Below, one piece after another: positions 6,735 through 51,344 of a DNA stretch of 64,000 nucleotides. Location: assembly GCA_017499595.2 (NCBI GenBank), contig CM039003.1:620001-684000 (forward strand). Reading direction: 5' to 3'. Every line of letters begins with the position of its first letter. Position 1 is the first letter of the stretch. The stretch is from Psilocybe cubensis. Its lineage: Eukaryota. A program made the position numbers and the translations under genes. The notes beneath the pieces are model-generated. The model worked only from the letters and a program-made list of their open reading frames with translations, made no database searches and was not told where the DNA came from.

Positions 6735-6758
6735 CACTGCGGACATTGGCTTCAATAA
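6735..6758 (+). repeat. Left TIR of the giant CACTA element (CACTG terminus)
   Basis: CACTGCGGACATTGGCTTCAATAA, preceded by the TSD AGT. Confidence 0.95.
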
Positions 6759-6762
6759 CGAC

Positions 6763-6940
6763 TGAGTATATTTTGAATATATGATAATCTTAGTATTTTA
6801 ATTTTTCAACATTTATTCAAGACATAACCCCTAGTTAATTGCAAAACAAAATTTCAACCTTTTTTCAACATATACCGAGGGACAAAATTTGATATTTATT
6901 CTAATTAACACAGCCGATCAAATGTTGAATAAATTTTGAA
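6763..6940. repeat. Left subterminal repeats, consensus approx. TTCAACATTTA(T/C)TCA in both orientations
   Basis: TGAGTATATTTTGAA (~6763-6777), TTCAACATTTATTCA (6805-6819), TTCAACATATAC (6864-6875), AATGTTGAATAAATTTTGAA (6921-6940). The same motif occurs at the right end. Confidence 0.7.
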
Positions 6941-7919
6941 CTCGAATATACTATACATGGTAGACTATTTTTTACCATATACATGTTTGACCGAAACGTA
7001 CTCAAAAGGGTAATTAATCATCGGACTGGTTCTTACGAGTATATATATTGAATTTGTAGAATATCAGACAGGCAAAAGAGGTACTAATTAACGAAGCAAG
7101 TGAAATAGCTCGATATCACATCTCATATTATTATAACAAATGATACTCATGATCAGACGGCTCGCCGCCAAAAGTCCGTTGATGCACGGATAGTGAATCA
7201 TAATCAGGTATATATACGGGTTATATGCATCGAGAGCGCGCAAAACTATGCCCTAGGACGAGCGAGCCAGGTTAGCAATTAAGAAGTGATAAAATCTCGG
7301 ACTCGCCTTTCTATAGGATGTGGATATCTAGTTCTAGAGTGGTTACAAACTATCGGTATATAGACATTCCATTTCCACGGAGATCGGTGGCACTAGGTGT
7401 GGGGGGTGGACGACAGTGCACATGTTCTTTTAATTTTGAACTATGGGTGAATACGTTGGCGTTGCTGCCAAATGTGGTCGCTGCATCCGCGCATTCATGA
7501 ACTGGAACGTTGTACGCTGATCAATCTGAGCTGCAGAACTACATAAAAAATGTTGCATACTCACTTACAGTGACTATGATCAACAAGAATGTGCGAGATA
7601 TTGGTGACGAGAACTATTAAACTCAATTAATCAGCGCTTACACCCGTTTTGCTGCGATTGATGCCACATCAATCACAGATCACTCTAGTTTCTCGCGTTC
7701 TTTCTTCCAATTAACACTCACACACAGACACTTTGCCTCCCTCATCAAGTCGCATTACTAGGCTATTCATGATGATGGGCATCATTGATTCATACTCTAA
7801 GTCTGCCCATCTCTTCATCCTGCTTGTCTGTTTACTTCTCAGTTTTGGGTGGACGGCTCTCTATGCAGCAATTTTCCTAAGCTTCATACTCCATTATATA
7901 TCGGCATTCCTCTCCATAG

Positions 7920-8370
7920 TTTTTAAAGAAAGCGGAAATTTTTTAGACGGCTTACTCGTCTCGCCACTCGAGCTGTACAAGAGCGCAAAAGGCTATGGAA
8001 ATGGGAGAAAAATCCGGGTTTTGGGGCGCGTTTTCGGGGAAACAGGTGAGTTACTACAAAAACTACGCCCAGACTTTTCATGCGAACCTTTTTAGTGGAA
8101 GAAAGAGCGCGACCATTCCTCAAAAAACGTCACGACATCACCATCCGTAAAATTGGTATCGAAGGCCAACGACTTCGCTTGTCCCCCGGTTCTCAAGCTG
8201 ATCACGATCTGGAGGTCGATCTGGAGATGCTCAACAATGAATTCAAGCTGAATGATATACTCTTCGAGCGTGTCATACGCAAGCACGCTGCCGCCCATGA
8301 ATACGACTTCCTTTGCCTACGCTATAACATTACTCCCCACCGTGTCACTGCTCCCGATCGTGAGGTCTAG
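7920..8370 (+). CDS. Small hypothetical spliced gene (cargo), 5' end uncertain
   Basis: Basic exon (KRKFFRRLTRLATRAVQERKRLWKWE), a GTGAGT...TTTTAG intron at ~8046-8095, then the 8080-8370 frame ending ...APDREV*. No recognisable domain. Confidence 0.35.
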
Positions 8371-10282
8371 GTTTTTTGCGGGCGTTTGCCTCTTCTTCTT
8401 CATCGTTCTTATCGCTTTATTTTGGACACATTTTCTTGTCACATCATCTTGGACGTGCTTTCTGCATAGATATCTTGCTGTTAAACTTGTGCTGCATTCT
8501 AAATGTTTTCCTTGTACATAATTTTTTTCTTGGGACGTTTTTATTTGTATTTCATGTCACCGCCGTATTGCATCTCTATTCTTGTGTAGAAGTCGCCGTC
8601 TGGATATCGTTGAAGGTGGCCTGTAGTTGATGTCTTATCCTTCGACTAATGTAGCATACCCATTGAACTTTATAAGTATTCCAATATAGCCAAATATTCA
8701 TGTCGTATATTCAAAACACAATAATCATGGGACTTCGATTTCATAAAATAGATTTATTCCTTGATCATGACGTTATGTATACAACCTATATATATTATAC
8801 ATCTAGAATAAATCAACCCAAGTTCAATTCTCTTGTACATTCAATGCACTTACCAGTATGATTATGGAGTGCCTCCATCGAAAGTATCAATTCAGTTCTT
8901 CCTATATATAGTTCTCCAGCACGATTGACTTCTAGTCTCTTGAGAACGGGATAGTTCCACAGCCACAACTCCGGCGTGCCCAATCATGATCAAGGGCACA
9001 AGGAGTGCTTCGATGTCACGATTACGAGCAACTTGCTTAGAGTCAGTGCAGAGAGAATACGATGCAGCCGTTAACGTTGGAATTGAACGAGAACATGAAC
9101 TGCGGGATTGCGCGACTCGACCGAGTCCCACTGAAATCTGAGATTAGCACTGCTAAATCAAATAAAATAAAAGAAGCACACCGTAGTTCAAGGCATCTTC
9201 ACAATGTTAAACAACTTAGCATATCCGCGCATGACAATGTCCGAGAGCCCCACCGAGTGCGATGTGTTTCAGGACAGGCGGGCACAGGAGGAGAGTACTG
9301 GAGAAGTTGACCTTGCTTACGCTGATATTGGATTCAAGACACCTGACGCTGATGATGAGCCGAATGAGCACCGCGGAGACCGCGAGCACTGTTAGGAGTG
9401 AGGCGGTGGAAGTGTGGTTCTTCAGTTGAGTAACTGCGCTTGTGTCCGGGTTGAAGGACTGGGTGTTACTGATGGTATATCAGATTTAGATGTAGAAAGT
9501 GTTGACTTTGTGGCTGCTGTAGAAGCAGACCTCTGAGCGTCGAAAAAGCGTGAGGCAAATATGAGTGAGTATCTGATGTGTGCTGACAGGTTGTGTATGT
9601 TGGCAACAAAAGCTGTATCGCCAAATCCTGTGTGGTAGAGCGCGATAGCGGACAGAATGTCGAGGAAAGAAAACGCAACCATCCATCTGTACTTGCGACG
9701 AGAAAGAAAAAAAAATCAGCATACCATAATATACAACATAAAAATATGCAGCCGCTTACCTGCTCTGCGAGTTTAATTCCTGAGCACTCGCCACGCTTGC
9801 CATGAATGCCTCCAAACCTCCATTGACCGCCAGAACGGGGATATACCAGAACCACACAGCGAGGACGCGTACGCGTGGGCACTGGTCGCATGGTACGCGG
9901 GAGGAGCAGAGGTGCGTATGTGGAGGCGAAGAAAGGGAAAATAGAGCAGAGGTCAGTTGGTAGGTCCTTGATAAAGATCGGCTCCTCTTTTCCGTAAAAT
10001 ACCATAAACTGCTAGCTAGGTCAAACTGATCATGGATGGTGGTGTTCACGGGGCGTTGCCAGTGCCTCCGTTCAAGTTGATGACCGAGTACATCCGCCTG
10101 CGGGCGGTCAATATTGCTCTGCACGATTCTCTCTCATGGTCGACACTACGCGCATCCTCAACCTCGTTGTGGTCCTTCACATTGTCCGAAGACTCTGCCT
10201 ACATCTTTATTCCACCAAGTTTGTCGCCAAACCATCCTTGTCGCTCTCCTCCGCCGTTTAGCTCAAACTCCGTATTTCATTC

Positions 10283-12595
<2,313 letters not shown>

Positions 12596-13693
12596 GACGG
12601 GAAATGGATGCAGGTGGTTTTGTTGCAGGTTATGTAAATATGGCCAGAGAATCCATCTTCTGGTGCGCTACTAAGTCCTTGTCAATCGCCGCGCGTCACC
12701 CTCTCCGGCTACCCGTGCTGGTAGCGTGTTTAAAAAGTTAGAATGGCTATGGAAGGAGCAGACGACCGCTGGATTGTGCAGATGACGACAAAATGCAATG
12801 TTATAATAAAGAACGTGGAACGTGTGCATGGTAAAAGGGGTTGTATGCGTCTGTACAGACAGAGGATGGGAATGCAGGCGTAGGTGTTTGTTATAATGAT
12901 GTCCGTTGCCGGTGTTTGTTGTTGTTGCTAGGACCTTTTGAACATTGGTGTTAGCATTCCCATCGAGTCGCGATCGGGCGTTGGTCGATGTGTTACATGC
13001 GCACTTATAGGCGGCAGGAACATGTACAGGGTTTACAATCTCAAATTGAATTTCAACCCCTGTAATATGAACGGCAATAAACGCAGTTTAATAATCCCAA
13101 AATTAAGAACAATACCCCATGGCCAACTTCATCACTTTTCTCTCCCGCACTGTCCGCAAATCGCCCTTCCGGCCTCTGTTCTGCGATGCCGAAAACACTA
13201 GCGGCGGGTGTACCTTCCGTCTGCTGCGACGGCAACAGCGAGACTGCATGCGCACTCCGGGAACCTGCGACGAGGTATAAATATGAGATCGAGGTTTGGG
13301 GTCCAATTGATCACGGACGCAGTCGTTATATGTCGATGTCGATGTGGGTGTTGGAATCAGATCTTCACAAAAACTATGCCACGAGTGACAAGGATGAGGT
13401 TCTGTCTTTCCAAATGCCTGGCCTAAATGTGGGCATCGTCATAGATCCGGAAGGTGTGTAATGTGACAAATTGTACCTATTCCCCAGGATAAAGACCCGC
13501 GTCTGGACGTATCCACAACGCTGTCATGATCATGATCAACTCAGAAAATATTTTAAAAAAGCAGACTTATCCATTTTGGTTACACAAGGTCTCTAGATGT
13601 TTACACTATTGACAGGAAAAAGTAAACGATATATGTAAATCCTAACCCGATCAATGCGACGTTTGGTGGGTATGACTGCTGGCCATGATAAGA

Positions 13694-13883
13694 GAAATGA
13701 AGTGGGAAATGAAGTGTTTGACATCCTATTTGACGAATAATTGGATGTGCTAATCTCTGTTAAAGTCGTCAAATTGTTGGTAGATGGGGAAATGAAGTGG
13801 GAAATGAAGTGTTTGACGTCGTATTTGACGAATAATTGGATGTGCTAATTTCTGTTAAAGTCGTCAAATTGTTGGTAGATGGG
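13694..13883. repeat. Tandem duplication, 2 x 95 bp
   Basis: GAAATGAAGTGGGAAATGAAGTGTTTGAC...TTGGTAGATGGG repeated at 13694 and 13789 with few mismatches; overlaps the 3' end of the first membrane-protein gene. Confidence 0.9.
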
Positions 13884-14959
13884 GTTGTCTCGGCAATCCT
13901 AGGCCTAAAAAGATTAACGTGGTGCAAAATTGTCCCAAGAATGACAGAGATATTAAGGGTAAGGACTGAAATGGTTGCCTACAAGGAGTGATGAGAGTAA
14001 AACTCGGTTTTAAAATAGATTCCGCTCACCGAAGAATGAAGAATGTACACCAGTACACGGGGGTCATTCATTGCGCGTGACAGATACAGTATCAAACAGA
14101 TAGCACTGGTAATAACCAAGATGACGTTACTGCGAAATCCCAATAAAACGACGCGCAAGCGATGGTCATTGTTTCGCAGTGCGGCCCAGCTTCTATCGAG
14201 CGAAATGGATTGTGTGTGGTAAATCAAAAAGAAGTCGATGGTGAGCTCGGCTTTAATTAATTTAGGGATTGAAATGTCACAATCACAAAATTCATTGACC
14301 AATAGGATATCTTGCTTACTAATGAAGGCGAAAATCAACAAAAGGCAAGGAGGGTAACAGACACAGAGGGGGGCACTGTCGACGCAAAGGAGAGAGATGC
14401 GGCATAGAACATACGACAGTGTACCGTATCCGGCTCCACACGCAAGTATAAACAGTGTAATGTAAATGGCTCGTTTGATCTGGGGCTGCTGGTCCTGGAG
14501 AAGGCGATTCGGTGCCATGAACAAGCTGGCGCGTGAAAACCTATTCACAAGGTACGAACACATGAGTCTCTGGTATATAGACAAGCATAGAGACATATAA
14601 ATGCATCACCAGATGGAAAAGGTTGCAAACATCCATTCCATGCGGTAATAGTCAGAGATATGTCGAGTTGTATCTAGAATCGTTTAGGAAGTCTAGTCCA
14701 GAACAATCAACAACACTGTATTAGACACTTACAATAGAGGAGAAGTCTACAAAGTAAGACTATGTTTGAGGTTGCTGCAGCGCCTGCCAAATAATCATCC
14801 GACCAGATATTTGCATATCTTAACACCAGACGGGAAACCGTCGTGGCGAGGGCCACACAGTGCAGAGAAATGAGAAGAGCGAAGGCAGCTATCAATATCA
14901 GTTAAATATAAGAGAGTTGGCGAACAATGCTGGCCAGACTTACTCGGACTGATGTTCAT
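13769..14959 (-). CDS. Multi-exon integral membrane protein, PTH11-like fungal rhodopsin domain (paralog 1)
   Basis: LHCVALATTVSRLVLRYANIWSDDYLA resembles the RL...WxDD motif of PTH11-like proteins. Several hydrophobic segments and GT-AG introns. Clear homology to 21737-22837. Confidence 0.6.
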
Positions 14960-17751
14960 GTTGAGCGGCTGAGTGCGCACGGTCCAGGAAAAAATGTTGG
15001 TGGAAGTATATGGGAACAAACACGTTTCAAACTTGTGACCAGCGGCCTAGTCGCACAAGCGCGGTTACGACCTTCGCTTATAATTATGTATTTGGATCCA
15101 TCGCCAGCAACCTGATCATGAATCGCATTTTGAAGTTTGAGTTTATGGTTACCAGTAAGCCAGGTTCAACTTACGGAAAATACTATGCATGCTGACGAGG
15201 AAGAAAAATACTGCAGGTAAACCTGCCAGCCACATTTCCTTAGCTATTTTTCTTCGGTTGTTCCTGCCTTGGTTGAGGAAACTATGATATTGGCAGGTCC
15301 GTTATTGTCGTCGAGGAGTCAAGTTCTACCTGAATTCCCATTCGAAGATCCAGTATCGCTGACAAGGTGAATCTAGCAGTCGCTCCTGAAGAAATTGGGC
15401 ATCACTGTGGCCATGCTTGTTTCACTGGACCCTAAATTATCAATGCACAATTTGATCCTGCTATGAATTTAACGCTTTTACCTCAATGAAACCAAATCCT
15501 TCAAAGCGCCGTAAACTGACACAAAAGGCCTCTACCCGGTCTCATTCATGACGCCAGGATGTACATAGCAAGATAGAGTGTGTAACTGGAGATTGTTCGA
15601 ACCTGGCCATGGCCAGTAATTATAACTCGGGTAAGTTACCTAACTTACTTTCAAAATATCATGTACTGACCGTGGAGTTTACGTTCGCAACCTGCTCTCC
15701 ATGGCCAAGCACAAAGTGAAATTAAGCTGTCCTGTTTAGACCTTTTGAGACGCGTCCGTGATCTTGTAAGCTTCTACCCTTATCAAGGGGTCCAAGCACA
15801 TGCCGCATCGCACTTCAGACGATCTGGAAGATACATGAATAGACATTATAACTCTTGAAATATAGATCAATACCTATGTTCCAGAGAAATGGTACACCTC
15901 AGGTATTGGCCCCACATAGCTATAGGTGACCCCTAATCCCTTCTAACCTATTTTGTCGCAATTGTTATGGATTTGACTTGCATTTCGGAGTCGTAGATTA
16001 ACACGTCGATATCTTTGTTGGCGCGCCTTTCAACATGAGGGGAAATATCCTACAAGAGCCTGAAAATGTGTGCATGTGAGTGGGTCGCGTATATTTTCAA
16101 ACACGGTACTGACATGCATCCCATCCACCCATCAAGTCCAAAACTATGTAGAAGAAATTCCATGATGAAAATTGAAATGAAGGCAGTCCCAAATACCCAT
16201 CCATGAAGGCCCCAAACTTCAGACTATGTATTCTGTGCCACTCGACGCGCAATCTTTTTATATGGTGATCATTCGCAGCATCGTTCATAACTTCGGGGAC
16301 TATTTTAAAGTACTGGGAGCAGGAGCATCATCAAGAATAAGATACAAATAGGTAGGAGGTTCGCTCACCCTGGGGGTATCACACCATGAGATGTTGGAGC
16401 TTTTAACTTCCGAAGTGGACTGGACGAGAACTTGGGATTGACTGTGCTATGCAAAATCCGTTGTTGTGGGAGTTATACGGAACTGGAAGGGATAGATCTA
16501 GAGATATCTGTCGGTTGGTTGGATATGTCGAAGGGTGATTATATTATGAATTATGAATCTGGAAGGGCGGACGGGTCGTTGGCAATAGGTCAAACAAAAA
16601 ACTGGTCATGATCATGATCACATGCCGGGTTGGGTCGCCGCTTGCCATGATGAAGTGGCTCAAATTTTACATGTATTCACCTTTCCCATATATATATATA
16701 TATTCGTGATAACTACCTGATCTACCTGTCTTTGGTTTCTTCATCTTTACGAGTCAGTCAGTAAAATGTGAGGTCTAAAATGCTAGGCCTGGTTGAATTT
16801 GACTATGGACTAACCATAGAATGTCTCCCAGGTGCCAAGTTCTCTCTTCTTGGTTCTCACATCTCTGACTCGTCGATCGCGAACCACCTCATGAGCTCCT
16901 GTCTTCTATGTACTACGTGATCAGCAGCCATTTCCATTAGTTCTACTATCACTCGAATGAAACACTCTTCTTCGTAGTCTCAATTCTCAACTTTCATCAC
17001 CCTAATACTCAACACAATGATGCCCTGGTTCACGCATCAAGCCGATGACACGGTTACTTTGGCGTACAGTTGGAAAGAGTGGGGAACATATATGTGCGAC
17101 CCTGTTTTGGTCATTCTTCCCATTTATTAATCGTATTAATTTTCCTAGTTTTGCAATCGGGCCCACATGAAACTAGTTGACAGACGGGACGACTGTCATC
17201 ACCATAGTTGTGCATGCGGCTGGATCCAAATCCGATGAGGTGGTGGTTGTATTTCATGACAGCTGACTCCGACTTATTTCTAGATCTTGCTCCCTCACCA
17301 AGTGTCTAACATTCAAACCTTAACATGTACGAAAACTTCGCACTTCATTCACGTAGATGTCTATTTTGCAGGCCACTCATGGTTAGGCTTGTTGTTTCGG
17401 TCCGATATCTCAAGCAATTGGGTTTTCAAATAGGGGGATATATATTGTTTCATCCATGCTTATACGGACAGGCAGTCAAGGTGATCATGAATGAACATGG
17501 TGAGTTTGATCCTCAGATTGTGTTACTTGGATACTTTAATTCTTACCCCAAATCCTAGGGCCTATTAAGACCATTATCCGTGGCCTTTGTATCCCACCAT
17601 ACCTGATATTTGAACAACTCTGTGTTGTAAAAACTTTTTTCTGTCAGGATTCACAACGCGCATTGATCAACTCCGGATCCAGATCTGGCGATTATGGACA
17701 TCATGAGTCCAGCGCTTATTGACCCCCTTTCCCAACAAGGTGTCTGCCACC

Positions 17752-17779
17752 CATCAGGGCTCGGCCCGATGTGTACATG
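17752..17779. repeat. Dispersed hairpin-forming repeat, copy 1
   Basis: CATCAGGGCTCGGCCCGATGTGTACATG, identical at 26754-26781; variant at 43217-43238. Confidence 0.8.
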
Positions 17780-17996
17780 GCTACATCCCTGCACTTCTAC
17801 ACACGTACAATGCAGAAGTATATGTCGCAAATCCACTGTCCTGTAACACCCTCACATTAACTATATAACAGGCAATTGTACATATCCATTAATCATGATG
17901 ATGTCAATGCTAGCGCTGCTTCCTTTCCACATTGCGGGGTAACCATCATGATCAAGAGCACTAGCGCTAGCTTCAATGGCCGCAAGCCTTTTCATG

Positions 17997-24581: not shown

Positions 24582-24991
24582 ACGATGTGGAGTTGGAACG
24601 TTGAAGTTAACTCACCGTGACCTATATTTTCAACATTTCCCCCACAATCTAGCCAGTCAATTCGTTCTTCCCCTCCACAATCTGGCGAGTCAGGACATGT
24701 TCTCAGAATCTGGGCGCTTGTACGGTGTGATGTGGCCCCTTGTTGGTTGTGGCATAGTCGGCAGGCTAAACATTTGGTGAGATTTGTGGCGACGATGTGG
24801 AGTTAAACGTTGCAAGTTAACTCACTATATTTTCAACATTTCCCCCACAATCTGGCCAGTCAATTCGTTTTTCCCCTCCACAATCTGGCGAGTCAGGTCA
24901 TTCTCGGAATCTGGGCGCTTGTACGGTATGATGTGGCCCCTTGTCGGTTGTGGCATAGTCGGCAGGCTAAACATTTGGTGAGATTTGTGGC
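24582..24991. repeat. Tandem duplication, ~2 x 205 bp (period 210)
   Basis: ACGATGTGGAGTT...AAACATTTGGTGAGATTTGTGGC at 24582 and 24792 with a few indels; explains the near-identical ORFs at 24568 and 24784. Confidence 0.9.
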
Positions 24992-36892: not shown

Positions 36893-37389
36893 TATTGGTG
36901 CAAGTGGACATTGTTATAGAGCTGTGAATTGTTGATCGTGGAGATTGACCGCAAACTAGAGGAGTTTGAATCGATTGTAGGCTTATATATATCACAAAGG
37001 GACTACAAAAACACCCGAGCTGAACTGGAACGGACCACTTGCCATTGTTCCATGGTCATGATCATGATCAGTACCAGGCTTAGGGCGCTTTAATCAATGT
37101 GACTCCGCAAGGACCCCGAACTGGTTCGTCAACTACCAGAGTTGACCTAGCGCTAGTACTAGTGAGTTCAAACAGTACATGAGCACGGTAAAGTTATATT
37201 GACTCGAAAGGGCGGAGAAGGAATTGTACATTGTGCATGTACTAATTTGATTATGTATGGCAGAGTCTATGGAAGATTCAACTCGTTGTAAACTTGCGGC
37301 AATTGATCATGAAATAGTTTGTCACAATTCAGGAACTACATATGTACACGCACACCTCAAATTCAAGGATTGAAGAGACGGCGCAATGT

Positions 37390-39480
37390 CCCCCAATTAG
37401 TGAAATGCCTTGCCAACGACGACGGTGGTTCCACAGGTCCAAACTGGCGATAGGCATTGACCTCCCAATCGCCTTCGGTGATCGGGCTGAAGCTTCCTAC
37501 AAATTGCCGACCTGGATTATCTTCAATGAAGCTACAGTTAAAGTTAAATTATCAGGAGGTGATATTAAAAGTGGTCGATAACAAAAATTCGAACCTGATT
37601 CTGCCTCTAATATATCGTGTCGACTCTTCTTGTACAATGTTCTTTTCTTCGTCAGTTACTGGAGGCGGACAGTTCTGAGTTCATGCCATTTGTGAGTGAG
37701 TATGTTAATACGTCTATAAGGCCTGGCGTACTATACAATTGATCCCGTTGATGCACTGTTGCATCGTCCCATACGAAATAAAATGGCGATGAATGCGGCG
37801 TTGATACTTGCTTTGTTTGTAGGGTGAATTCATCAACACGTTCTAAAGGTTCATTAAAATAAATAAAAGCACGAAAACGACAAAAAGCATGGCTTACCAT
37901 GTTATCGATATGACGGACGATCTCGTCGGCAGAGAAGTCGACCCCAGGAAGACGAGCCCAAACTCTATCATATGAGCTATTCTCTACCGGCGTAAAATCC
38001 ATCACCCGCCCAAAGAGTACCCGAGCTCTTCGAATCCGTTTTCCCGGATAGTGAAGGTTAACATAGTAGAAGGGGTCGACTCCTAAATACTCGTAGATGA
38101 AGAGGCGAACCAAGCCCGGAGGAAAATAACGTATCCACTGATTATAAACCTATAAAAATGACATATGAGCTTAAAAGCGATATCAATTAACATAAAAATT
38201 GCGACGTACAAATGCGACGTCGATCCGCTCTCGTTGTAAGCTTGGTATATACACCTCAAATCCGCGTTTTCCATACTTTTGGTTTCGTACTTCATAAGAA
38301 GGAGAGCGGCGTGACAGGTCAATGGTATTAGCCTGCCGCATGCACGCCATCAAGCACCTGATGTTGGCCCAAACATTGGTTCCTGAATGGCGTCTCCGTG
38401 TCAGAATTTCTTCAATCAACGAGAAATAGTAGATTGTTATACCGTCGTACAAACAGCACGCGGCATCAATGTCAAAGCCGCATAATATTTCTGAAATACC
38501 ATGGTATAATCTAAGGATAATTTGAATAGGCCTGACGCCTTTGGCTACGCGTGTCATCATTAGATTATAATTAGGAGGCTTAGAAATTTAATAAGACCTA
38601 CCACGAATGGTGATGTTACCAGCCTTGCGAACACAAATCGCTGGTTGCAGGAGAGCCGAAGTAATATCCTGATATACTTCAACCATTCTCGCCTCGGCCT
38701 GATGAAGATGATCAGACTCAGAGAGTAGTACAACATAGGCTGAGTATATATAAGCTCACCTCCTCTGCATTAAGACCATAAATGAAAAGATCCACGTCGG
38801 AGTCAGGGTAAAAGTTTTCAAAATACATGTTTGCCTGCAAGGGAGTCCAAGGCGAAGCGTCAAACGATGTTGGCTGCATGCAAGCAAGGACGGCCCCGCC
38901 GGCGACAGCGATGTTGTCCCAATGCCGCATATTGATAAACGCGCGATTGGTGAAGATGTCGAAGTTCTGCAGGAACGCAGCCATGTCGGGGACAATGGTG
39001 GGCGATCCTTTGGCCCTTTTCATATCATCGGGGAGGGCAAAGAGATGTTTGCGGGGAAAGGAGTGTACAAGCCCAGTGGCGGGTTGTATGACGACTGGTA
39101 CGTCCGGTTCCTGATCACTCGATAGGCGGGGGAAAGCCCGTTTGACCTGGTCTGGGACTTGGTCGAAGACGTTGAGGAGACCCTCGGCGTGATGCAAGAC
39201 AGAACCATTGCGATGAGACCTGTCGTTGCGAGCAAATACCCGGCGTATCACTTGCTCCTCTGCAATCGCGAGCTCCAGGATTGTGTTGACAGGGTCCGTG
39301 AAGGAGTGGGCCTCGGTTGATTGTACAGAGATCAACTTGTCGAGACACCACTGCATCGAGCGGTGGATATGGGCGTATGGCCTCAATTCATCCGGGTCGA
39401 ACTGCATTGTGGGTAGCACAAGCTGTACTGATGACTTTCGAGCTCCCCGCTCATCATGGTCAGTATATACTCTTTTGGGT
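37390..39480 (-). CDS. Multi-exon protein with pol-beta-like nucleotidyltransferase motif
   Basis: WDNIAVAGGAVLAC...SDVDLFIYGL...IQIILRLY...EILCGFDID...YDG...RQANTIDLSRRSPSYEVR...KYGKRGFEVY, giving the GG...DxD signature. Resembles a domain of fungal ankyrin-repeat proteins (from memory). Ends approximate. Confidence 0.65.
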
Positions 39481-40009
39481 TCCTGGATGGGGAAACAAAC
39501 GGTTGGGTCAACCTACCACGCTTAGCACATGAAGCGGCATGCAGTTTGGCCAAGACCACATTCCTATATGATCAAAGGTTCTTTCATTGACGGCCGCGCG
39601 AAGTTTGTAATCTTTGCTCAAGGATTTGTCGAAGTGGTTCTAAGTAATTGTTGAACTGACTTTGAGTAATTGTTGAAACGGGTTTAACTTATTGTTCTTT
39701 GTCTGAATGGGTAAAAAGAAGACTCACGCGCTTTTTTTAATTTGCCTCGTGCTGATATGTACATGTACACCAAGTACGATTGCAGGAACACTTTTGATCA
39801 TGACCCTAGATATATCGTATGCACTAATAAGTACGGTCATGATTCAAAGATTCGCACATGTACATGGATCAATGAACATATCCACACATATATATATAGC
39901 AAGTACTAGATCTAGACGTATAATTTATAATTATCGGGCAGCTAGATATGTCTAGATCTAGTAGGAAGTTTAATTTGTAGGAAAATTAGTGCCGAATCGG
40001 CGCGAGCAC

Positions 40010-42766
40010 TTATTCATGAGCTGAAAATAAATCGGATGCCAATTTCTCCAACTGCTGCCTCCCTCGACGAAGTTGTCCGCTGCCCCGCGTTCCGTCGCGC
40101 CATTTATTGGAAGACTGTGGTTGACGTTGGATGTTTGTGAGGCCTTTGATGGCAGATGAATTTCGATTGTCAAATATGTCAAATATAACTTCAGAATTTT
40201 CTGTCCAACGGCCGTAATCTTGACCGGAAAGTTGATATATGCTGTGCAAAGGGAGCCATGATTTTCTTGCAATAGTATTTCCTTGTCCTAGATGCAGTTA
40301 TTAATGAGTGACTGCTGAAATGGGATACGAGAAGCTAGTAGGTCAAGAGGTACGTACCAGTGTAACATTCATATAAGCCACTGAGGACCTCTTCTTCAAA
40401 TTCAGTCAATTTGTTGTCAATATAGACATCCCCGTTGCAGTCATTGGCAGTAAAGTACTTGCCAGATTGTGGAACAGGTCCGCTGAAGACAACCTCAAAA
40501 CTGACAATGGGGGCGGCAATCCTCCAATGATATCCTCCTGCCATCAACGCGGCTCGGCCGGCTGGATTATGCAGTAATACTTGAGCAGATCGTTCTCTAT
40601 ATACTGCATAATCGGTTACATCGAATTTGTAGTGTGGGGGTCGTGTCGGGTGCCTTTGTTTAATAGGCTTGGGACCAAGGGGTTGATACCAAAGAGCATC
40701 AGACGAGAGCTGGAGAGTATGAAAAGGTATGCCGTGTTGTAACAGAAAATGAGCAATTTCAGTTTCAGACCACCGAGCATCCAACCGACAAATTGTTGCA
40801 GCAGCTGAAGCTGAAGCGACTGCGAGGTTCCATTTCATGGTTCGGTCAGACCCAAAATGGAACATGTAGATCTTTTGACCGTTAGACGTTGTAAGGTTTC
40901 TTACACACTGTGATCGCTTGTTGAATCGGAGGTATTCTCGATGATTTCGACCAAGGTCACATTTGTCGTTCAATGTCAGGGGCATGTTCTGACACAAACG
41001 AGTCAAGAATTCGAAGGCTGCGATGACTCGAGGTCTTTTAAACACTTTTTGTGGGCAAGAGCTCCAACAAATACCAATGTATTTGAGAAAATTTTTTTGA
41101 TCTGCCTCTGCAGAGATAGGTTTATTTGAACTGACCAGGACAGGTGGAAGGGGTGACGTATAGCCAAAGTAAAGACGTAAGATATCGAGAATTTCACTTT
41201 CTGCGGTGTCGACTATGGTTTCCCCCTCTTCGCCATAATGTGGGAGCCAGTCAGAGACATTGTTGTCATCGTATCCAGGGATAATCAGTGAGATTTTTGG
41301 AGCATCATGAACGTCGTGGAAAAGAGTACATGAGCGTTCAGACAACTCTGCGGCAGTCACTTCTAAGTTCAAAGAATTTTCTCTATTCTCAATATTGTCC
41401 TCATTGTAATCATCTCCGGGTCCAAAAAATTGCGAGCAGTCGTATTCATTGGCGAAAGAGTCATAGCGCACTTGATGAACACTGAACATAGCTAATACAT
41501 CACCACGCTCTTGAGGAGATACTGGAACGCGGACATATATCCCCGAATTACCTGCCTCTTTCCATACAAAGACTTTGGCACTATGCGGGGGATTTTTGGT
41601 CCTCTCTTCACGAGAACGGCGTTTGATCATTGTCTCTGTCTCCATTTGCTGTTGATTTCGTTTTTCTCGAGATTCGAAGAATTCTTGCCAAGCATAGGCA
41701 AATAACTCATCGTTTGCTTTGCTCCGTTCTCGAATTGTTGATGGCTGTGGTGCGATTGTTGTGGTGGACAGTTGGAGCTGGTGAGAGAGAGGTGCCATAT
41801 ACTGCTTTGATGGGTCTTTGGCATATACCCCGTCCCAAATATACCAGACAGGAATGCCCCATTGGCAAAACCATTCAACAGAAGGCTGCAGGCAGTCGAC
41901 TTTTCCAAGAGATTGTAAGTCAATGAATACTCCCACCCGGCTTCCTCTGGTATAGTCACAAATTTCACTACAAAGAAAAGACTCCAGCCAGGCCTCCTTA
42001 CAGTGTTTCTCCAACAGATATTCAACCCAAGTTGAGGATGAGAGGCCCGGGTACTCTTGCAACTCTTTTCCTCTCGTTTCAGCCACGGTAATCAAATATG
42101 ATAACAGGCCCATCCATAAAGCAAACCAGTCCCTGGAGCGTTCAAGTGCATGAATTGCGTTAGCTCGCGACGTGTGCCTTTTGCTGTAACCGAATGCCCA
42201 AGGTCCGACAGGCTTTAGGACGTTGCATTTTGTCAAGGTCGACAAATAATGTGACATACGCGATAGATCCTGTTCAAGTGAAGACCATTGCCTAATTTTC
42301 TCTATACGCATAGAGTATTGAGGTGGGTCGACGTCTGTATGTTCATAAAGGTCGTACGATCGAGGAATGTTTGAAAGAATTCGAAATATGTAGCCACTGA
42401 ACTGCGGTTGTCGAGGTATGAACGAGACCCAGCCCCAATGTGGGTTCCACCAAAACGGATGTCGATAATTGTCAGCGTTGATTTTGGAAAAATCATATCT
42501 TATATCTGTTGATTGTGAGTTGTTTCCATGGGCCGAGAGCAACAAAGTTGGCGAGGGCAGTAGAATGTTTTTGGTATTGTCCACGACTTCAGGGATTGTG
42601 ACAGATCTTTTACAATTCGGCGAGTACACAACCTTCCCGTTCAGAATCAGCACCCTACCGTTGGAACGATCAACAAACCTGGATTTATTGGCGCATTAGC
42701 ATATTGGACACATCGCGGAGGGAAGAAGATTGGCGAACTTGGGACTTACTGGGCACGAGTGCTCAT
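40010..42766 (-). CDS. Large hypothetical protein (~870 aa, 3 exons) with C-terminal SWxP...SG..YG.WT..SE motif
   Basis: Uninterrupted 772-aa ORF (40335-42653), short upstream exon MSTRA with a GTAAGT intron, and a downstream exon KSWLPLHSIYQLSGQDYGRWTENSE...AHE* ending at 40010. Confidence 0.7.
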
Positions 42767-43216
42767 TTCAGAATCCTGAAGTCGAAATTCAATGAGCCTG
42801 CGGGAGCCTATGCAAAGGCCAATAATGCGTTACTATCTTCTGATAATTCGGGGTGGCGATTAGTGATCTGGACGAATCCAAAATCACGAATATACGCGAC
42901 GCGACGCGATCGAGCAGCGTACCCGGATGGGAATCCACTGTACGTAGCTATAGCTAAGATACCGATCGCACATGAACATGTACATGTACCTGTACATACT
43001 GATCATTAATATTAATGCGGCATTCAAAAAATTCAATACTTTTTGTTAGACTGAAAATTACGTAATATATTCCGTTCCGCGTTTCACCGCGATTCTGTAC
43101 ATCGAAAAGTACTAGTACTACATGGAACAGTATAGGCCATGGCCAGACAGATGGCCATCGCTCTTATCTTCCTCTATGGATCCATGCATGGCCAGTACTA
43201 CTAGTCATGTTTTACT

Positions 43217-43238
43217 CACATCTGGGCTCGGCCCGATG
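43217..43238. repeat. Dispersed hairpin-forming repeat, copy 3 (variant)
   Basis: CACATCTGGGCTCGGCCCGATG. Confidence 0.7.
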
Positions 43239-43962
43239 GGAACGCTCCTCAGGTGGCTATCATGATTGCTTGCGTCGACCATGGCCATGGCCATGTACAA
43301 AATTTTAATTGCGCATGCGAATTCCACTGCCAATGCAACCTCAATGGCACCTACTCATGTGCCGATCAGCTTCGATACACGTACGCGTACGGACATGGCC
43401 TCTACTAGATCTACTAGATGGATCCGGAGGTAATTAAGCAATTTTTGATTCCCTGAATAAAATCGGCAATAATTATATACATAAAAGCTCCACAAGGGTA
43501 CAAGCAGGTACATGTACAGATCTATTATATATATCCAACTCCGGTTTCCCTTATATTAGGTGATCATGATCCCTTTCATGAGGGATCACCAATTCAAATG
43601 CGCATGCGCATGCCCAGGCGTGACGAATTCGAAAGGCCGCGCTTCGACCTCATGATCATAATATATAATCACCAGCCGGAATATTAGTTCAAATGCAATC
43701 GCAAATGACAACAGTGAAAGACTAACGACCCTCCCCTAGGCATCTTTCTCTGATTACCACCATGTCAAACGGAAACCAAGAAGTAAATTATACACGGGAA
43801 GCTGGAGACGTTCATCTCTGCGATCTACCAAATGCAGACCGTCCATCCTTTGCACCGTTGCTCGGATTTGAGGCTGACCTCGAGATGGATGTAAGAGCCA
43901 TGATCTTATACTTCCTTTGAACTTTTGACATTCATATTGCGCCATATACCACAGATTTATAA

Positions 43963-46313
43963 GATGTCCATCATGGAGATGAAGCGCACCCGCACCCCTA
44001 GGAGCTCTAGGAACTCTACGTATGCTTATATATACTACCGTTTCGTTCTTACACGGGTTCACTGATGCTCGTTTTCAGTACTACACATGTCGCTCGAACC
44101 TCTTCGGAGCTGACTATGACAGTGGAACCGTATACATCTCCGGAACATGCTGGGGACGCCATTCTTTGGTACGTAGATCTAGGCATAGATTTTATTTGAG
44201 CCATGAACTAATTGTACTTCTAGATTCATCAATACATTGTCCGATCCAACAGAACGTCCAAACAGATTGCAACTCTTTGGACAATTCTATCCTGACATGG
44301 GTACCAAGCGTGCAAGCTTGATGCGGCTTTTTTATCTTTATTGCCCTCAAGCTACCGTTGGCGAAATTGTACAAGTCCTTGACAAACTCACGGGCGATAT
44401 CTCGGATTATCAAATGTTAACGACCGATGGGTTCTCCGTACTCAGACCCTTCGCTGACTACGCGGATGAGGACTCAATGGCAAACGCTTGTCACTATATC
44501 TTGACTGGGGAAACGAGGACGATAGGTTCGGGAGCTATGAACCTGTAAGTTCAAGGAATCATTTTTGTTTTACTATGTTAAGCTGACCTTTTGTAGACTA
44601 CATCATAGTAATCATGACGCCACAATTGCAAGATGCGCTGCTCAGCGTGCAGCTCGACTTCGAGTGCCAGAAGCTCCTGCACCTATTGCGCAAGCTTCTC
44701 TGGCGTCATCCCTTCCACTTGTGTCTTTACCAGTGTCTGTGTCTGATGCTCAGCCGTCGTCGTCACCACCCATCCCTCAGCATGCATTGTCTCCGCCACC
44801 ACCGGAGTCATTACGCATTCGTGCGGATCAAGCTCCTCATCAACCACCATTGGCGCGGCCAGAATTGGTGGAACGTGTATCTTTGTCGTCACCCCCGCCG
44901 CCGCCTCAGCTGGAGCCCATATCTTCAATTCAACCTCCGCATCAGCCGTCCTTAGCGCAGACGGTAACAGCAGCACCCCAGAATATTCCCCATGTATCTT
45001 CACCACCACCGCCTCAGCCAGTGCCCATGTCTGCAGTCCAACTGCCATCATCAGCACAAACAGTATTGACAGCACCTCAGCCCACCCCTCATATAGTGTC
45101 GCCGCCACCGCTGCCGGCGGCTCAGCCTGCGCCCATATCTGCAGTTCAACCATCAGAATCATTGGCGCAGACAGTTTCAGCGGTGCCCCAGTCCACCCCT
45201 CATGTATCATCGCCACCGCCTCAGCCAGTGCCCATATCTGCGAGTCAACCTCCGCATCAACCATCCTTAGTGCAGACGGTATCAGAGGCACATCAGCACA
45301 CCCCTCATATAGTGTCGCCACTTCCGCCGTCTCAACCAGTGACCATGTCTGCAGTTCAGCCATCAGAGTCATTGGCACAGACAGTATCAGTGGCGCCGCA
45401 GTCCACCCCTCATGAAACATTACCGCCTCAGCCGGTGCCCATATCTGTAGTCCAACCTCCGCATCAACCACCCTTAGTACAGACGGCATCACAGGCACTT
45501 CAGCCCACTCCTCATGTATTGTTGTCGTCGTCGCCACCGCCTCAGCCGGTACCCGTGCCTATGGTTCAACAGTTACATCAACCCTCTTTGGCGCCGACGG
45601 TATTGGCAACACCTCTGCCCATATCTCATGTATCGGCACCGCCGTTGTCGCATCAACCGTTGTCTATACCTATGGTTCAACCCCTACCGGTACCTCAGTC
45701 ACTCTCTGCTCCGCCAGCTGTCGCGACCGTTCCTCCACAACAGCCTCAGCATGTTCTTCCACCTCAACAACCTCAGAGTATGCCGCAAGCTCCTTTGCCA
45801 ATGTCTACTTCCACAATCAATTCTACCACTACTTCGGCAACCCAGCCAACCCAACACTCGTGGTCATCCTCCATCTCGACATCAACCTCCCACCAATTAC
45901 TATTGGATCAAGACAACGCTCTCTTTGGCGTTTCTATGGTCGAGCTGCACAGAAATTCTGGGACGTTTTCATATGAGGGCCAGATGCATACGTTCCGCTG
46001 GTTTCTTTCAACAGGACCTGCACGACTTGTGACTCCTATCTATTCGCAGCAAATGGACCCGCAACCTGCAGTTGGGGACATTTTCTTCCATAAGACCGCC
46101 CCAGAGCAGACTTTTTTCAACTGTCAAGTCTGGTACAAGAAATCCGAAACCCAATGGCAGGATATCACACGTAGATATGCAGTTTATAGGGACGTTGAAC
46201 CCATCACCCATCCTCTATGTCAGGCAAGAGTTCTTAGTGCCAAGAGGTCAGATGGTTCTCCTAACTGGATCTTGAGAGAGACGTGGTTGAACTACAGAAG
46301 GACGAGAGCATAA
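43963..46313 (+). CDS. Multi-exon Pro/Gln/Ser-rich repeat protein directly upstream of the transposase
   Basis: Exons near 43963, 44080, 44224-44544 and 44597-46313. About six imperfect 35-45-aa repeats (PPPQPVPISAVQPPHQPSLAQTVS...PHVSS). Globular C-terminus GDIFFH...QVW...HP...PNW. Confidence 0.65.
44895..45690 (+). repeat. Coding minisatellite, imperfect ~110-125-bp units
   Basis: Recurrent CCGCCTCAGCC(A/G)GTGCCCAT(A/G)TCTG...GCAGAC(A/G)GT...CCCCTCAT units. Confidence 0.8.
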
Positions 46314-46532: not shown

Positions 46533-49500
46533 ATGGATCGCCCTGTTGCAAGCAATCCTCGCAGACAACCAAGAGGAAGAACAGTGTTGTGCAAGTGCAA
46601 GACATATTGTACCGTTTTAAATCCCGCAACGGGCCTCTATGAAGGTGAAGGAAATCGAATTTCCCGATCGCAGAGGGACCGGCATACCAGGAGCGACAGA
46701 AGCCATCCCGAATCAACATCCTCTGCGAATTTGCTTCCCATGCTTAATGACTCTTCACAACATCTGGACGTCAGCAGCTTGATTATGAGGTCTTCGCTGG
46801 AGCTCGAAAACCTGCTGTCTTCTCCAGTCATACGCATTGATCAATTATTGCGATTTAAACACGACCCTAGGACAAATGGTGCCTTTGTTTTCCCATCTGA
46901 CAACGACTTGATGCTGGTCAATCAAGGTCTTTACGCTTTGGCTGATGAACATGTCAACCGGGCATATCTTCACGCTGAACGCGAACTTGTTCGCCTTATT
47001 TCCTCCGCAATGGTGCTAGATAGTGACAATCTGGACGTCGCTGAACACCTTCACCGGCTTTGGGTCGAATTGAGAAACCTTACGCTCCTCAAAGAAGCAG
47101 AATGGACCAGCCAAAGAAGTGAAGGGACAGGACGCCCTGTCATAAATACAAGTAATGTGCATGTACCATATCGTTGATCAATTTGACCTTAATCTGTGTC
47201 TCCTCTGTAGATGCATATTTTCAGCCATTTCCAATTAGAGGAAAAGAAAAAAAGGCGGCAAGCATCCTAACTCTGGTGATGCAGAACATCTATTTTTCGC
47301 CACGTCGCGCATTACGAAGCTTACTGGGCGGAATCCAAAGTATATTAGAGTCTTCAAGAGTCTCTACATCTTCATCTTCAATACATGAATCAATGCCAAA
47401 AGATCCTCGCCCGTTGTCGGGACATTTCCGCTTGAACCCCATCACACGAACGTATGTGGCATGTCCTTCGTGCCACAGCCTTTACCCTTATCGCAAGGGA
47501 GACAGTCCGCTCAAAGATGTTGATCCTTTTATACTTGATTGTACCAACAAGCGCACCCCTACCAGCACTGCTTGCAGTACTCCTCTGTGGACACTGACAA
47601 CGCAGCCGAATGGGACCACCAAAGCATGGCCTAGAAGAAAATACATCCATCAAGATTTGAAATCCTGGGTTGGGCGCCTGCTATCACGAAAGGATATAGA
47701 AGAGCACCTCGATCGCCCTCTGCATGACGATTTTGCAGGCTCGTTCCCTGTCGATGATATTTGGCGTTCTTCGGTGTTTCGGAACCTCAAGGACTCACAA
47801 GGAAACCCTTTTATCCCTGGGCCGGAAAACGAAGGTCGGCTTATATTCAGTTTATCAGTGGACAGTTTCAACCCATTCCATAATAAAACAGCAAAGCAAA
47901 GCGTCTCATCTACGGGAATATGGTTAGTTGTACTTAATTTACCCCAACATCTCCGATACCTTCAAGAAAACATGTATTTGGCTGGCGTTATTCCCGGACC
48001 AAACAAACCTTCAAAGGAAGACTTATACCCATATCTGGACCTAGTGATAGACGAATTAGAGGTGTTTTACTACGAGGGTGTCAGGTTTTTACGGACGTAT
48101 CAGGAGTTTCTGGGTCGTATTTTCTGGGCGATCCTTGTTCCGTTGGTTTGCGATATGTTGGCTGCGCGTCAAGTTGCTGGCCTGGGAGGCTCAAGTTCGC
48201 ACTATTTCTGTTCGTTCTGCAGTATTGACGTCGACGATATTGATGTCCTGGATAGGAGGGAATGGCCCCCAAAGGATGACCAGCACATGCGAGCCATTGG
48301 CCAGTTATGGAAAGATGCTGAAAGCGAAGCCAGACGTCAGCAAATATTCCAAAGGTATGGACTACGATGGTCTCCACTTTACCGCCTCCCATACTGGAAT
48401 CCAGTTCTTTACACTGTTATTGATCCCATGCACGTACTCGACCTTAATCTTCTCCAGAACCACTGTCGGTCAATCTTTCAGATAGATGTTGAACAAGATG
48501 GGGGGGATGGGATAACTGATGCAGTATTAGCTCCAAGCACCCGGAGAGACGGCACCATCCAACAAAGAGATCGTCCTTCACATCGAAGGTGTTGCCAATT
48601 AATCAATCAGGGTGGAGAAGACTTGCTGGAAGAACTAATGTTGTTTTCAAGGCGTATTCTGTTCAAAATCTGCCTTGACAACCATATATTGGGACAAAAT
48701 CACACACTCGTAATCGGTACACGTTGGATCCTTGCAAATAATATAGTCGCCTGGGTAGGTGTTTTGTTATACCGCCTTTTCTTGGCCTTTGCAAAAAATC
48801 TGTTTACCAACATTATAATTACAGAGAGCCATGATACCTGACAATGAAGATGTGGAAGTGATTGAAGACCCATCGGTAAACAGCGATGAATCAGAAGTCG
48901 ATGAGCCTGAAAGCAACCCAGCAGGGCACGAGCTTGATCATGAGCAAGTTGATCGACATCCAGAGCTCCCTCCCAACGAGAATTTGAATATGACACTTGT
49001 CACACGAGTAATCCGACATATAGTGGATACCGACAATCCAGCTGTCTCTCATCGGAGAGCCTACGAGCAAGGTTCTGCTGCTATCTTTGCCTACGTGTGT
49101 AGCATTTTGGAGATAGAACATGATGTCGATGAAAGGAGGCGGAGTGCAAAGAACGCATTGTTTAATTTGATTATAGAAGAGGTCAGCATAAATATTCTGA
49201 AAAACAGTAATATATCCGGTACTGATAACATTGCCTTCAAGATCGATGATGATACCGAGAAATTTTTATATCTGGAAAATCTCACAAATGATTCTGGAGT
49301 ATTACGTCGTCGGCCAGTTTTGGGTAAGGACGTAATGGAATGTGTCTGGAAAGACATGAAATCTACCCAACTTCCTACATGGATTACTCCTGCGCCATCA
49401 AATTGGGGTACAACTCAGAGAGGAAAGTTGAGTGCCGACAACTGGAGGGTCATTTGTACAATTCATCTTCCTTTTACTCTTATAACGCTCTGGGGATCAG

Positions 49501-50727
49501 GCTCCAACCGCAAACAAGCAATGCTCAGGCACTTTATGGATCTAGTCAGTGCAATACGTATAGCAAACATGCGTGTCACCACAGCTAGTCAGATAGCGCG
49601 GTATGACACCTTCATGGATCGTTATATATCAAATCTCCGAGTACTTTACCCCGACCAGCAGTTGAAGCCCACCCACCATGCCGCTCTTCATATTGCTGAT
49701 ATGCTTAGGCTATTTGGACCAAACCATTCCCATAGTGGCCCTCACTATGAACGTTATATCAATTTCTTTCATAGAATCAATACAAATTCAAAAATAGGTA
49801 TGGTTCTCCTGAATATCCTTGCTGTACAGAACGTAACATTAAAGATATACTTCACGATAATCATCAGGTCAGCTCGAGTCCACACTATTTCATGTTGCGA
49901 CACGAAGCGCGAACCTTCGCGCATTGCTTTCGGATAACGACGATATTCGCGACAGTGTCCTCAGACTTGTACAGGTAATGGATTGCATAGATCTGGAGGA
50001 CGCTCGAGGTTTCCGCCTTGCTAGTGTATTGGATCCCAACTCCCCATCGTTTGCTCCTCGGTCCGAGACCTTGCGGCTCAGGCTTGAGAGTGGAGTTCAT
50101 CAACAAGTTTGCGATTTACTCGATCGAAGCATGGAAATTGATACTATGCCACAGCAAGCCGATTTCATGACAGAAGTTTCGCTGCGCGGAGTTTGCTATG
50201 GTACATCAACTGCACCATCTAGTGCCTCTATTCGAAACAGTAGGATTGTATACAAGCATCGAGTCTTGTCAGCGGATGACCTTGACGAAATACGACCAGC
50301 AATTATCGAAGACATTTTCCAATATCATTATACAAGAGAAGACGGGCATACCACATACGAAGTATTTCTGAGGTTGAAATCACTCGCACCTTTCGACATT
50401 CAAACAGATCCATACAGACGTTACGGCGAATTTGCGGGATTCCTTTGTTATCCTAATCGATACCAGATGCTGGTGATCCCTCTTTCGAGAGTTATTTCTC
50501 ATTGCGCCTCTACAAAAGTAATTGGAGGTGAATATGACGGCCTTCTTCATATGCTACCTGTTGATCGTGTAAGTTGTGACTTATATATATATTACGAGCG
50601 GGTGACTGATTATGATTATGTGGATTGACACGCGCAGTTAATGTTGGAGTTTTCAATTCCGTCAGGTAGTGAATTCCAGGATACAGAAGACTCGTTAGAT
50701 GTCGAAGAGGAAATCGAATATGTATAA
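46533..50727 (+). CDS. CACTA/En-Spm Tnp2-family (Transposase_21-like) DDE transposase, multi-exon, apparently intact
   Basis: Motifs CPSC, DDIWRS, LIFSLSVDSFNPF, LNLPQHLRYLQENMYLAGVIPGP, VCDMLAARQVAG, HYFCSFC, RWSPLYRLPYW...IDPMH, GKLSADNWR, HAALH...FGP, YERYI. Long open exons joined by GT-AG introns (approx. 47152-47210, 48755-48823, 49182-49241, 49798-49867, 50568-50637). Stop at 50725-50727. Confidence 0.9.
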
Positions 50728-51148
50728 GAACCAGAGTAGCCTTATATATCTATATATATTATTACACGAACATAGATCTCGCAAATCTGAATATCATGAT
50801 CATGATAACACCTTATGACCAGTCGCGGCTTATGTTTATAATATTCTGAACGTGTAAATCTATGGATTATTGGGTATATATACATACATATCAAGTCCTA
50901 GTACAATATTGTTAGTGGGCCTCTGACACTGACGGGCCAACCCATGCGCCCAGAATTAAAACTAGTGGCGAGTTGATCACATCGATGATCATGAGCTACG
51001 ACGATATATCGCTAGGTTTTGGCCTCTATCATCAAACAAAATAAAATACTAAGAAAAAGCTGTGTAAACGCCATGGTACATACTTACTATATTACGTAGT
51101 TGTCAGCTGAAAACATGAAACAATATAAATAAGCAACTTTACTAGTCT

Positions 51149-51315
51149 TTCAACATGTATTCAAGCATTAATCAGGATCAGAATTGCTTGTTTTGGATGC
51201 TGATTACATTTTAAAAAAAAACTAAGTAAATGTTGAATATTTTAAACCTTTAACGAGCCGTGATACATATTGAATAATTATTGAAAATATCGAAGTACAT
51301 TTCAACATTTACTCA
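51149..51315. repeat. Right subterminal repeats of the CACTA element
   Basis: TTCAACATGTATTCA (51149-51163), TAAGTAAATGTTGAA (51223-51237), TGATACATATTGAA (51261-51274), TTCAACATTTACTCA (51301-51315). Confidence 0.75.
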
Positions 51316-51320
51316 TGTGA

Positions 51321-51344
51321 TTATTGAAGCCAATGCCCGCAGTG
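51321..51344 (-). repeat. Right TIR of the giant CACTA element
   Basis: TTATTGAAGCCAATGCCCGCAGTG, followed by the TSD AGT (51345-51347). Confidence 0.95.

Follow-up and report, generated by a model that had tools for sequence, protein, structure and literature searches.

A 44.6-kb CACTA transposon of Psilocybe cubensis that most likely moved together with its passenger DNA

How much DNA can the machinery of a CACTA transposon carry from one site to another in a mushroom genome? In this study, we address this question at a locus of Psilocybe cubensis, a stretch of 64,000 nucleotides (hereafter the window, to which all coordinates refer) in which an interval of 44,610 bp (6735-51344) is bounded by CACTG ends. 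Cut-and-paste DDE transposons usually measure from a few kb to about 20 kb, and in fungi it is the Starships of Pezizomycotina, with their tyrosine recombinase, that are credited with moving tens of kb of passenger DNA. Our findings strongly favor a model where the interval is an autonomous CACTA/EnSpm transposon, resident in a P. cubensis-type genome, that is young and has moved with passenger DNA. A young unit, bounded on the left by the terminal inverted repeat (TIR) and with markers between 10 and 43 kb, sits at no fewer than two loci and is missing from some samples. Thus, ordinary CACTA machinery in an Agaricales genome recently transposed no less than 36 kb, and most likely all 44.6 kb, as a unit, with a doubling of copy number. 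The locus offers a concrete, testable case of cargo mobilization by a DDE element in Basidiomycota, as well as a case of transduplication of a host gene (MCM3) by an autonomous fungal CACTA.

The borders of the element are defined to the base. Both TIRs (table 1) start with CACTG and are inverted copies of each other, identical at 23 of 24 positions with one mismatch; a 24-mer search tolerating up to three mismatches returned these two sites and no others in the window, and two or more matches were obtained in none of 100 shuffled controls. An AGT triplet adjoins each TIR on its outer side. The octamer TTCAACAT occurs at 14 sites in the window (both strands), six of them inside the element and within 200 nt of its ends, against about 0.09 expected there by our own arithmetic; one further site sits outside the element, in the surrounding Tc1/mariner copy. 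In an exact scan of metagenome contigs, the 24-nt TIR gave no match. The initial annotation, made from the sequence without database searches, had proposed base-exact 24-bp CACTG TIRs, a 3-bp AGT target site duplication (TSD) and shared subterminal repeats, and all three stand, the TIRs as the only such pair in the window and the duplication by comparison with unoccupied sites.

These unoccupied sites are found in the family that received the insertion, for the element is inserted precisely into the transposase gene of a Tc1/mariner copy. The host is recognized as Tc1/mariner by its HTH plus DDE_3 transposase, its 213-nt TIRs and its TA-CAGTG ends; the two halves of its gene are carried by minus-strand open reading frames (ORFs) on opposite sides of the element, 6321-6797 with DDE_3 and 51465-51983 with HTH_Tnp_Tc3_2. 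When 6735-51347 is removed in silico, the halves share one frame and a 176-codon ORF crosses the junction. The N-terminal half has one in-frame stop near 51465, and the 39-aa piece beside the right junction, scanned by itself, gave no DDE_3 match. In uninterrupted copies of this Tc1, the sequence ending in ...CTAGT (to 6734) continues directly into GGCAAATCCAATTCC / GGCAAATCCAATTCCTTCCC, that is, window position 51348 onward. Such read-through was seen in 530 raw reads of X21 and in contigs of X1, X2, and X5 (all four are public sequencing runs, X21 analyzed as raw reads and bearing the same species label as X2, the other three as contigs). Given that the uninterrupted copies carry a single AGT at the 6734/51348 join, AGT is a true target duplication, and the empty site predicted by the initial annotation is thus observed, in paralogous Tc1 copies. 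The host Tc1 family is itself highly repeated, with contig depth about 20-120 times the flank depth, and almost CpG-free (observed/expected 0.04-0.13), a depletion that points to prolonged decay of repeats through methylation in this genome. Some of its copies diverge just past the 213-nt TIR, with loose ends at 6291, as would be expected of short derivatives.

The element also retains its own enzyme. The ORF at 47156-48841 matches Pfam Transposase_21 (PF02992) at 43.7 bits, well over the cut-off of 28.6, and a stop-free four-exon model with GT-AG introns (table 1) follows a Galerina homolog of 1,247 aa colinearly over its residues 6-1241. The Tnp2-type transposase near the right end proposed earlier is therefore upheld by the profile, except for where it ends: the stop lies at 50628, 716 bp inside the right terminus, and not about 600 bp inside or at 50727. 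When aligned with 21 homologs, the window protein has the consensus residue at every one of the 53 columns with 90% or higher conservation, among them D424, D521, C540, C543, H1002, H1006, and E1026. CMC transposases display the residue order D, D, C(2)C, H(3)H, E (PMC12730594), and by this motif order D424, D521, C540/C543, H1002/H1006, and E1026 would be the catalytic residues. The family is large, with 3,606 clusters at E≤0.001 in a representative search, where the best match was 54% identical and no Psilocybe-specific representative appeared. A homolog search among proteins of 983-2805 aa gave 23 matches, at up to 55% identity, from other Agaricomycetes.

The initial annotation had counted about a dozen other genes. 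Just one has a recognizable domain and, judged from its sequence, it is a 3'-truncated, transduplicated copy of host MCM3. It spans the Pfam domains MCM_N, MCM_OB, MCM, and MCM_lid, and its exons are 98-100% identical to P. cubensis "MCM3" proteins, with lower identity to those of P. cyanescens (94%), Galerina (90%), and Flammula (89%), which marks the host as P. cubensis or a very close relative. The last ~135 residues of MCM3 were found nowhere in the window by tblastn. Contigs of the genuine gene part from the window at 10308 and 12631, so that the captured piece is 2.3 kb of genomic DNA with introns; it begins just 36 nt upstream of the ATG. The genuine P. cubensis MCM3 (KAH9487045, 843 aa) lies on a 4.68-Mb contig, whereas truncated copies of 695 aa are annotated on a 3.62-Mb contig (KAH9480136) and on a 3.13-Mb contig (KAH9477333), and a second truncated pair, of 703 aa, occurs in another P. 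cubensis protein set. KAH9480136 and KAH9477333 share the truncation point, differ from each other at 5 of 695 residues and from genuine MCM3 at 18-20; the window fragment matches KAH9480136. The truncated copies show substitutions in conserved stretches (e.g. GRGSWGVGL for genuine GRGSSGVGL), and each of the five differences between them is explicable by a single transition, as read from codons and not at the DNA level. In public P. cubensis protein sets, these transposon-borne truncations go by the name "MCM DNA helicase complex subunit" or "MCM3"; the two entries under the former name are not replication genes.

A second interior marker reproduces this pattern. Two P. cubensis proteins of the 786-aa ORF fall into one 90% cluster, KAH9480143 (3.62-Mb contig) and KAH9477325 (3.13-Mb contig); their accession numbers are 7 and 8 away from those of the MCM3-like genes on the same contigs, above in the first case and below in the second. 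KAH9480143 equals the window in the aligned parts, and KAH9477325 differs at two residues. Junction sequences agree with a second locus: in contigs of X1, X2, and X5, another flank (...GGCAGGACT / ...CGGCAGGACT) joins the CACTG terminus at 6734/6735, and in X1 and X2 a third flank (...CACAGAGA / ...GCACAGAGA) also joins it. Contig word depth rises from flank to interior from 9.8 to 19.9 in X1 and from 62.5 to 112.6 in X2, the roughly twofold interior depth being measured over 6.9-13.5 kb. In X5, the window flank has a depth of 0, the interior 14-16 and the contig with the other-flank junction 15.8, which suggests that this sample holds the second copy only. In X21, the left 6.8 kb of the element is devoid of reads except over the 2.3-kb MCM3-like piece: none fell on 6908-10218 (one bin with ~2-4 reads) or on 12627-13500; reads of this run cover the window flank and genuine MCM3. 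The element is thus polymorphic between sequenced samples. The possibility, raised with the initial annotation, that the interior is ordinary chromosome is contradicted by this gap in X21, and its proposal that the element moved as one unit with its cargo gains support from the precise insertion, the second locus with the same interior markers and the absence from X21. Given that the second-locus copy carries the same markers, the passenger DNA was aboard before the last move. Base composition provides a relative age: CpG observed/expected is 0.86-1.07 in every segment of the element, whereas the Tc1 halves reach just 0.04 and 0.13 and the left flank 0.27, with a sharp compositional boundary at both TIRs. 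With such normal CpG content, the element is young.

Other histories of the locus have to be weighed against transposition of the large unit. An ordinary-size CACTA might have entered Tc1 and grown in place, so that the 44.6-kb form never transposed and the second locus shares a part duplicated by other means. Such growth is in keeping with the linkage conserved in relatives, which spans just the 37-51 kb block, and with the state of the second copy, whose right end and transposase were not observed (the read and contig comparison amounts to one 9-kb stretch). It is nonetheless improbable: the homology of the second copy stops exactly at the left CACTG terminus and gives way to a different flank, whereas a segmental duplication would not stop at a TIR; in that copy, the MCM3 fragment (10-12.6 kb) and the 786-aa ORF (40-42.7 kb) are again both present, with unchanged gene spacing, and the interior shows about double depth over 6.9-13.5 kb. 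A host-derived MCM3 sequence that retains introns, in an interior that is mostly non-repetitive, would also be expected from a macrotransposition, where two separate CACTA ends were used together once and moved ordinary chromosome with host genes into Tc1. Yet the MCM3 piece is a 2.3-kb truncated paralog with the genuine 843-aa gene elsewhere, the DNA on either side of it is absent from X21, no internal TIR copies exist at up to three mismatches, none of 122 ORFs is a Pfam-recognizable host gene, and there are two copies, not one relocated segment; we therefore hold such an event to be very improbable. That the assembly joined unrelated repeats is a concern where both junctions fall within multi-copy Tc1 and where, among the contigs listed, none spans 6734/6735. 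A chimera, however, would leave neither a matching pair of TIRs nor a perfect 3-bp duplication, and would not split a gene in frame; two independent P. cubensis protein sets each hold both MCM3-like copies, and k-mer depth fits two copies, which makes an artefact scarcely credible.

Some observations do weigh against transposition of a young, complete element. Besides the unseen right junction and transposase of the second copy and the left junction of the window, which none of the contigs listed bridges, the gene order of the second copy is deduced from the spacing of accession numbers, a proxy, and no P. cubensis protein was among the transposase homologs of 983-2805 aa. X1 and X2 may be the source of the window itself, and hence not independent of it; contigs collapse variants, so that depth gives a rough copy number; and an element copy more than 5% diverged would escape the matching of X21 reads. 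Present-day activity is a presumption.

By analogy with its family, the DDE transposase would recognize the 24-nt CACTG TIRs and the TTCAACAT subterminal repeats, synapse ends that lie 44.6 kb apart, excise the interval and reinsert it with a 3-bp duplication, the window copy having presumably landed in this way inside the Tc1/mariner transposase gene. Because copy number rose from one to two, either the donor copy must have been restored or transposition took place during replication.

Table 1. Coordinates of the CACTA element, its contents and its Tc1/mariner host in the window.
Feature	Position	Strand	Basis
Left 213-nt TIR of host Tc1/mariner, starting TACAGTG beside TA	6079-6291		92% complementary to 52088-52300; very high contig depth, as for a multi-copy family
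C-terminal (DDE_3) half of host Tc1/mariner transposase, cut by the insertion	6321-6734	-	Pfam DDE_3, E 7.7e-14 and 3.5e-14
Left AGT target site duplication	6732-6734		Directly outside left TIR; uninterrupted Tc1 copies have a single AGT, then GGCAAATCC
Left TIR of element, CACTGCGGACATTGGCTTCAATAA	6735-6758	+	Inverted-repeat and mismatch-tolerant 24-mer search
Left subterminal region, three TTCAACAT motifs	6735-6935		Motif count
Captured host MCM3 genomic fragment, five exons with introns, coding sequence from 12595 down to 10286	10308-12631	-	Pfam, tblastn, contig divergence
Orphan ORFs, paralogous to 21740-22768	13982-14901	-	blastp 34% over 177 aa (E 4e-17) and 46% over 56 aa; no Pfam match
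Orphan ORFs, paralogous to 13982-14901	21740-22768	-	blastp; no Pfam match; Atlas scores <0.9
Gene downstream of 786-aa ORF, no Pfam family	37366-39512	-	tblastn to metagenome locus L042
786-aa ORF, Agaricales-wide family, candidate accessory gene	40335-42695	-	18 homologs; no Pfam or fold match
Proline-rich ORF, ~8 tandem repeats of ~35 aa plus non-repeat C-terminal part	44541-46313	+	Direct repeat families D1-D5; no Pfam match
Transposase gene, ~1,294 aa, four exons (46533-47151, 47211-48801, 48884-49797, 49868-50628)	46533-50628	+	Pfam, colinearity, GT-AG model
Right subterminal region, three TTCAACAT motifs	51149-51344		Motif count
Right TIR of element, CACTGCGGGCATTGGCTTCAATAA on the minus strand	51321-51344	-	Inverted-repeat and 24-mer search
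Right AGT target site duplication	51345-51347		Sequence and uninterrupted Tc1 copies
N-terminal (HTH_Tnp_Tc3_2) half of host Tc1/mariner transposase	51348-51983	-	Pfam HTH_Tnp_Tc3_2, E 2.1e-14
Right 213-nt TIR of host Tc1/mariner	52088-52300		Inverted-repeat match to 6079-6291; end reading

To what kind of transposon does an element of this size belong? CACTA/EnSpm elements are delimited by 5'-CAC(TA/TG)...GTG-3' termini in short TIRs (PMC12730594), and here CACTG...CAGTG termini, a 3-bp TSD, a Transposase_21 domain and subterminal repeats at both ends are all present. The termini and TSD differ from those described for PlavakaA (TGT..ACA, 2 bp) and PlavakaB (CATCA..TGATG) in the same source (PMC12730594). 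In its CACTG/CAC..GTG termini, 3-bp TSD, CMC-type DDE transposase and occurrence in a basidiomycete, the element resembles the fungal EnSpm elements described there and CNIRT6 of Cryptococcus neoformans (PMC12810828). CNIRT6, an active CACTG-ended CACTA whose transposase gene annotation covers ~6.9 kb (PMC12810828), differs in size and load: the Psilocybe element measures 44.6 kb between its TIRs, ~30 kb of it non-core. A captured host gene fragment between CACTA ends, here MCM3 at 10308-12631, recalls the Pack-CACTA/Pack-TYPE transposons of plants, described as non-autonomous elements that capture gene fragments (PMC6379663); in contrast, the present element keeps a full-length, stop-free transposase, and it is a very large fungal element of which the fragment makes up little. 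Enlargement by accessory genes is a trait shared with the "giant" Plavaka of the red alga Bostrychia, EnSpm-superfamily DDE elements of 17.4-19.1 kb with three accessory genes (bioRxiv 10.1101/2025.02.11.637652). Bostrychia Plavaka makes up a third of the genome, whereas the Psilocybe element has two copies, is more than twice as long, displays EnSpm-type termini and TSD, and bears accessory ORFs without recognizable domains. Starships (PMC11162782; PMC13066641), as far as these sources describe them, are similar in being fungal, tens of kb long, loaded with DNA not involved in transposition and present or absent between strains, yet they carry a tyrosine recombinase, whereas the Psilocybe element has a DDE transposase, TIRs, a 3-bp TSD and putative cargo. 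By Pfam, no tyrosine-recombinase "captain" gene lies inside the element, where only Transposase_21 and MCM domains were matched.

The element is, then, an unusually large form of the known CACTA/EnSpm kind and not a new class. The undescribed class envisaged by the initial annotation is at odds with the presence of every CACTA/EnSpm feature examined and with a cargo made of a truncated MCM3 copy and ORFs without recognized domains, although its underlying claim, a DDE (Tnp2/Transposase_21) CACTA element of 44.6 kb in a basidiomycete, is corroborated by Pfam, TIRs, and TSD. We did not find such an element described in Psilocybe or other Agaricomycetes, in a literature search that did not extend to many subscription papers or to any supplements, e.g. 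the family tables of Kojima 2025, which may list lengths. A bolder reading, which we judge unlikely, would make this element the first recognized member of DDE-driven, cargo-mobilizing giant transposons in mushroom-forming fungi, the CACTA counterpart of Starships, with ~30 kb of lineage-specific genes as functional passengers. The 786-aa family and the truncated MCM3 might in that case counter silencing or act on host replication, and the passengers would be shuttled between chromosomes, possibly between strains.

The remaining contents separate into two parts. Among interior ORFs of at least 100 aa, 4 of 30 match Pfam, all of them pieces of one MCM gene, and Pfam assigned no family to another 122 interior ORFs (75 aa or longer). 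The interior holds no long terminal repeat pairs, reverse transcriptase or integrase, no third TIR, and its long repeats are tandem arrays only. With these Pfam, repeat and TIR searches empty, the size of the element is not due to nested known transposons. On present sequence comparisons, the right block of ~14 kb (37-51.3 kb), with the transposase, the proline-rich ORF directly upstream of it, the 786-aa ORF and its linked gene, looks like the core of the lineage, and the left ~30 kb (6.7-37 kb), with the MCM3 copy and ORFs without known domain (among them the paralogous pair of table 1), appears to be passenger DNA. Relatives of the 786-aa ORF occur at 57 metagenome loci. At one of these (L042), the relative is followed by relatives of 38721-39512, 38186-38587, and 37366-37548, in order and strand as in the window, and is preceded by a Transposase_21 fragment; the gene at 37366-39512 matches this locus at 55% over 105 aa, 31% over 204 aa, and 54% over 28 aa. 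At another (L001), a 786-aa ORF relative adjoins a Transposase_21 gene. These are the only 2 of the 57 loci with a Transposase_21 relative, or 2 of the 12 that have the full 10 kb upstream, so that the link between the 786-aa family and CACTA appears to be recurrent but not obligatory within 10 kb. ORFs from 13-37 kb have no relatives in the 57 loci. For the 786-aa ORF, an AlphaFold model (15-sequence alignment, pLDDT 69.9, pTM 0.44) had no Foldseek match in PDB at E≤0.001; Atlas look-ups reached at most 0.88 for the 275-aa and 786-aa ORFs, and at most 0.86 for the latter, values that serve as leads only.

Several minor observations concern the same regions. At L001, two inverted 786-aa relatives with identical scores flank the Transposase_21 gene, a pair that may be a hairpin assembly artefact. 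In fungal metagenome contigs of 28-86 kb, 786-aa relatives often occur twice, ~10-30 kb apart (L015/L026, L024/L039, L025/L038, and L046/L057), and the DNA examined around these four pairs contains no Transposase_21 gene. L022, L025, and L026 share ORFs with the left flank of the window (670-921, 1406-1792), a sign, perhaps, of a further family of repeated elements. A near-palindromic motif, with the core GGGCTCGGCCCGATG preceded by CATC, lies at 17749-17787, 26751-26789, and 43216-43254; the three copies share one orientation and all fall within the element; two are 92% identical over 39 nt, and GGCCCGATC occurs in the flank of the second element copy as well. The motif may serve as a binding site or be left over from small elements. 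The passenger region includes two tandem duplications, at 24560-25000 (units of ~200 nt, 89-97% identity) and at 13694-13884 (a 95-nt unit present twice, 97%). Beyond the element, a Ty3/Gypsy-type polyprotein (56658-63998, plus strand) with DUF4100, aspartyl protease, reverse transcriptase, RNase H, and integrase domains extends over three consecutive ORFs split by single stops and runs off the end of the window.

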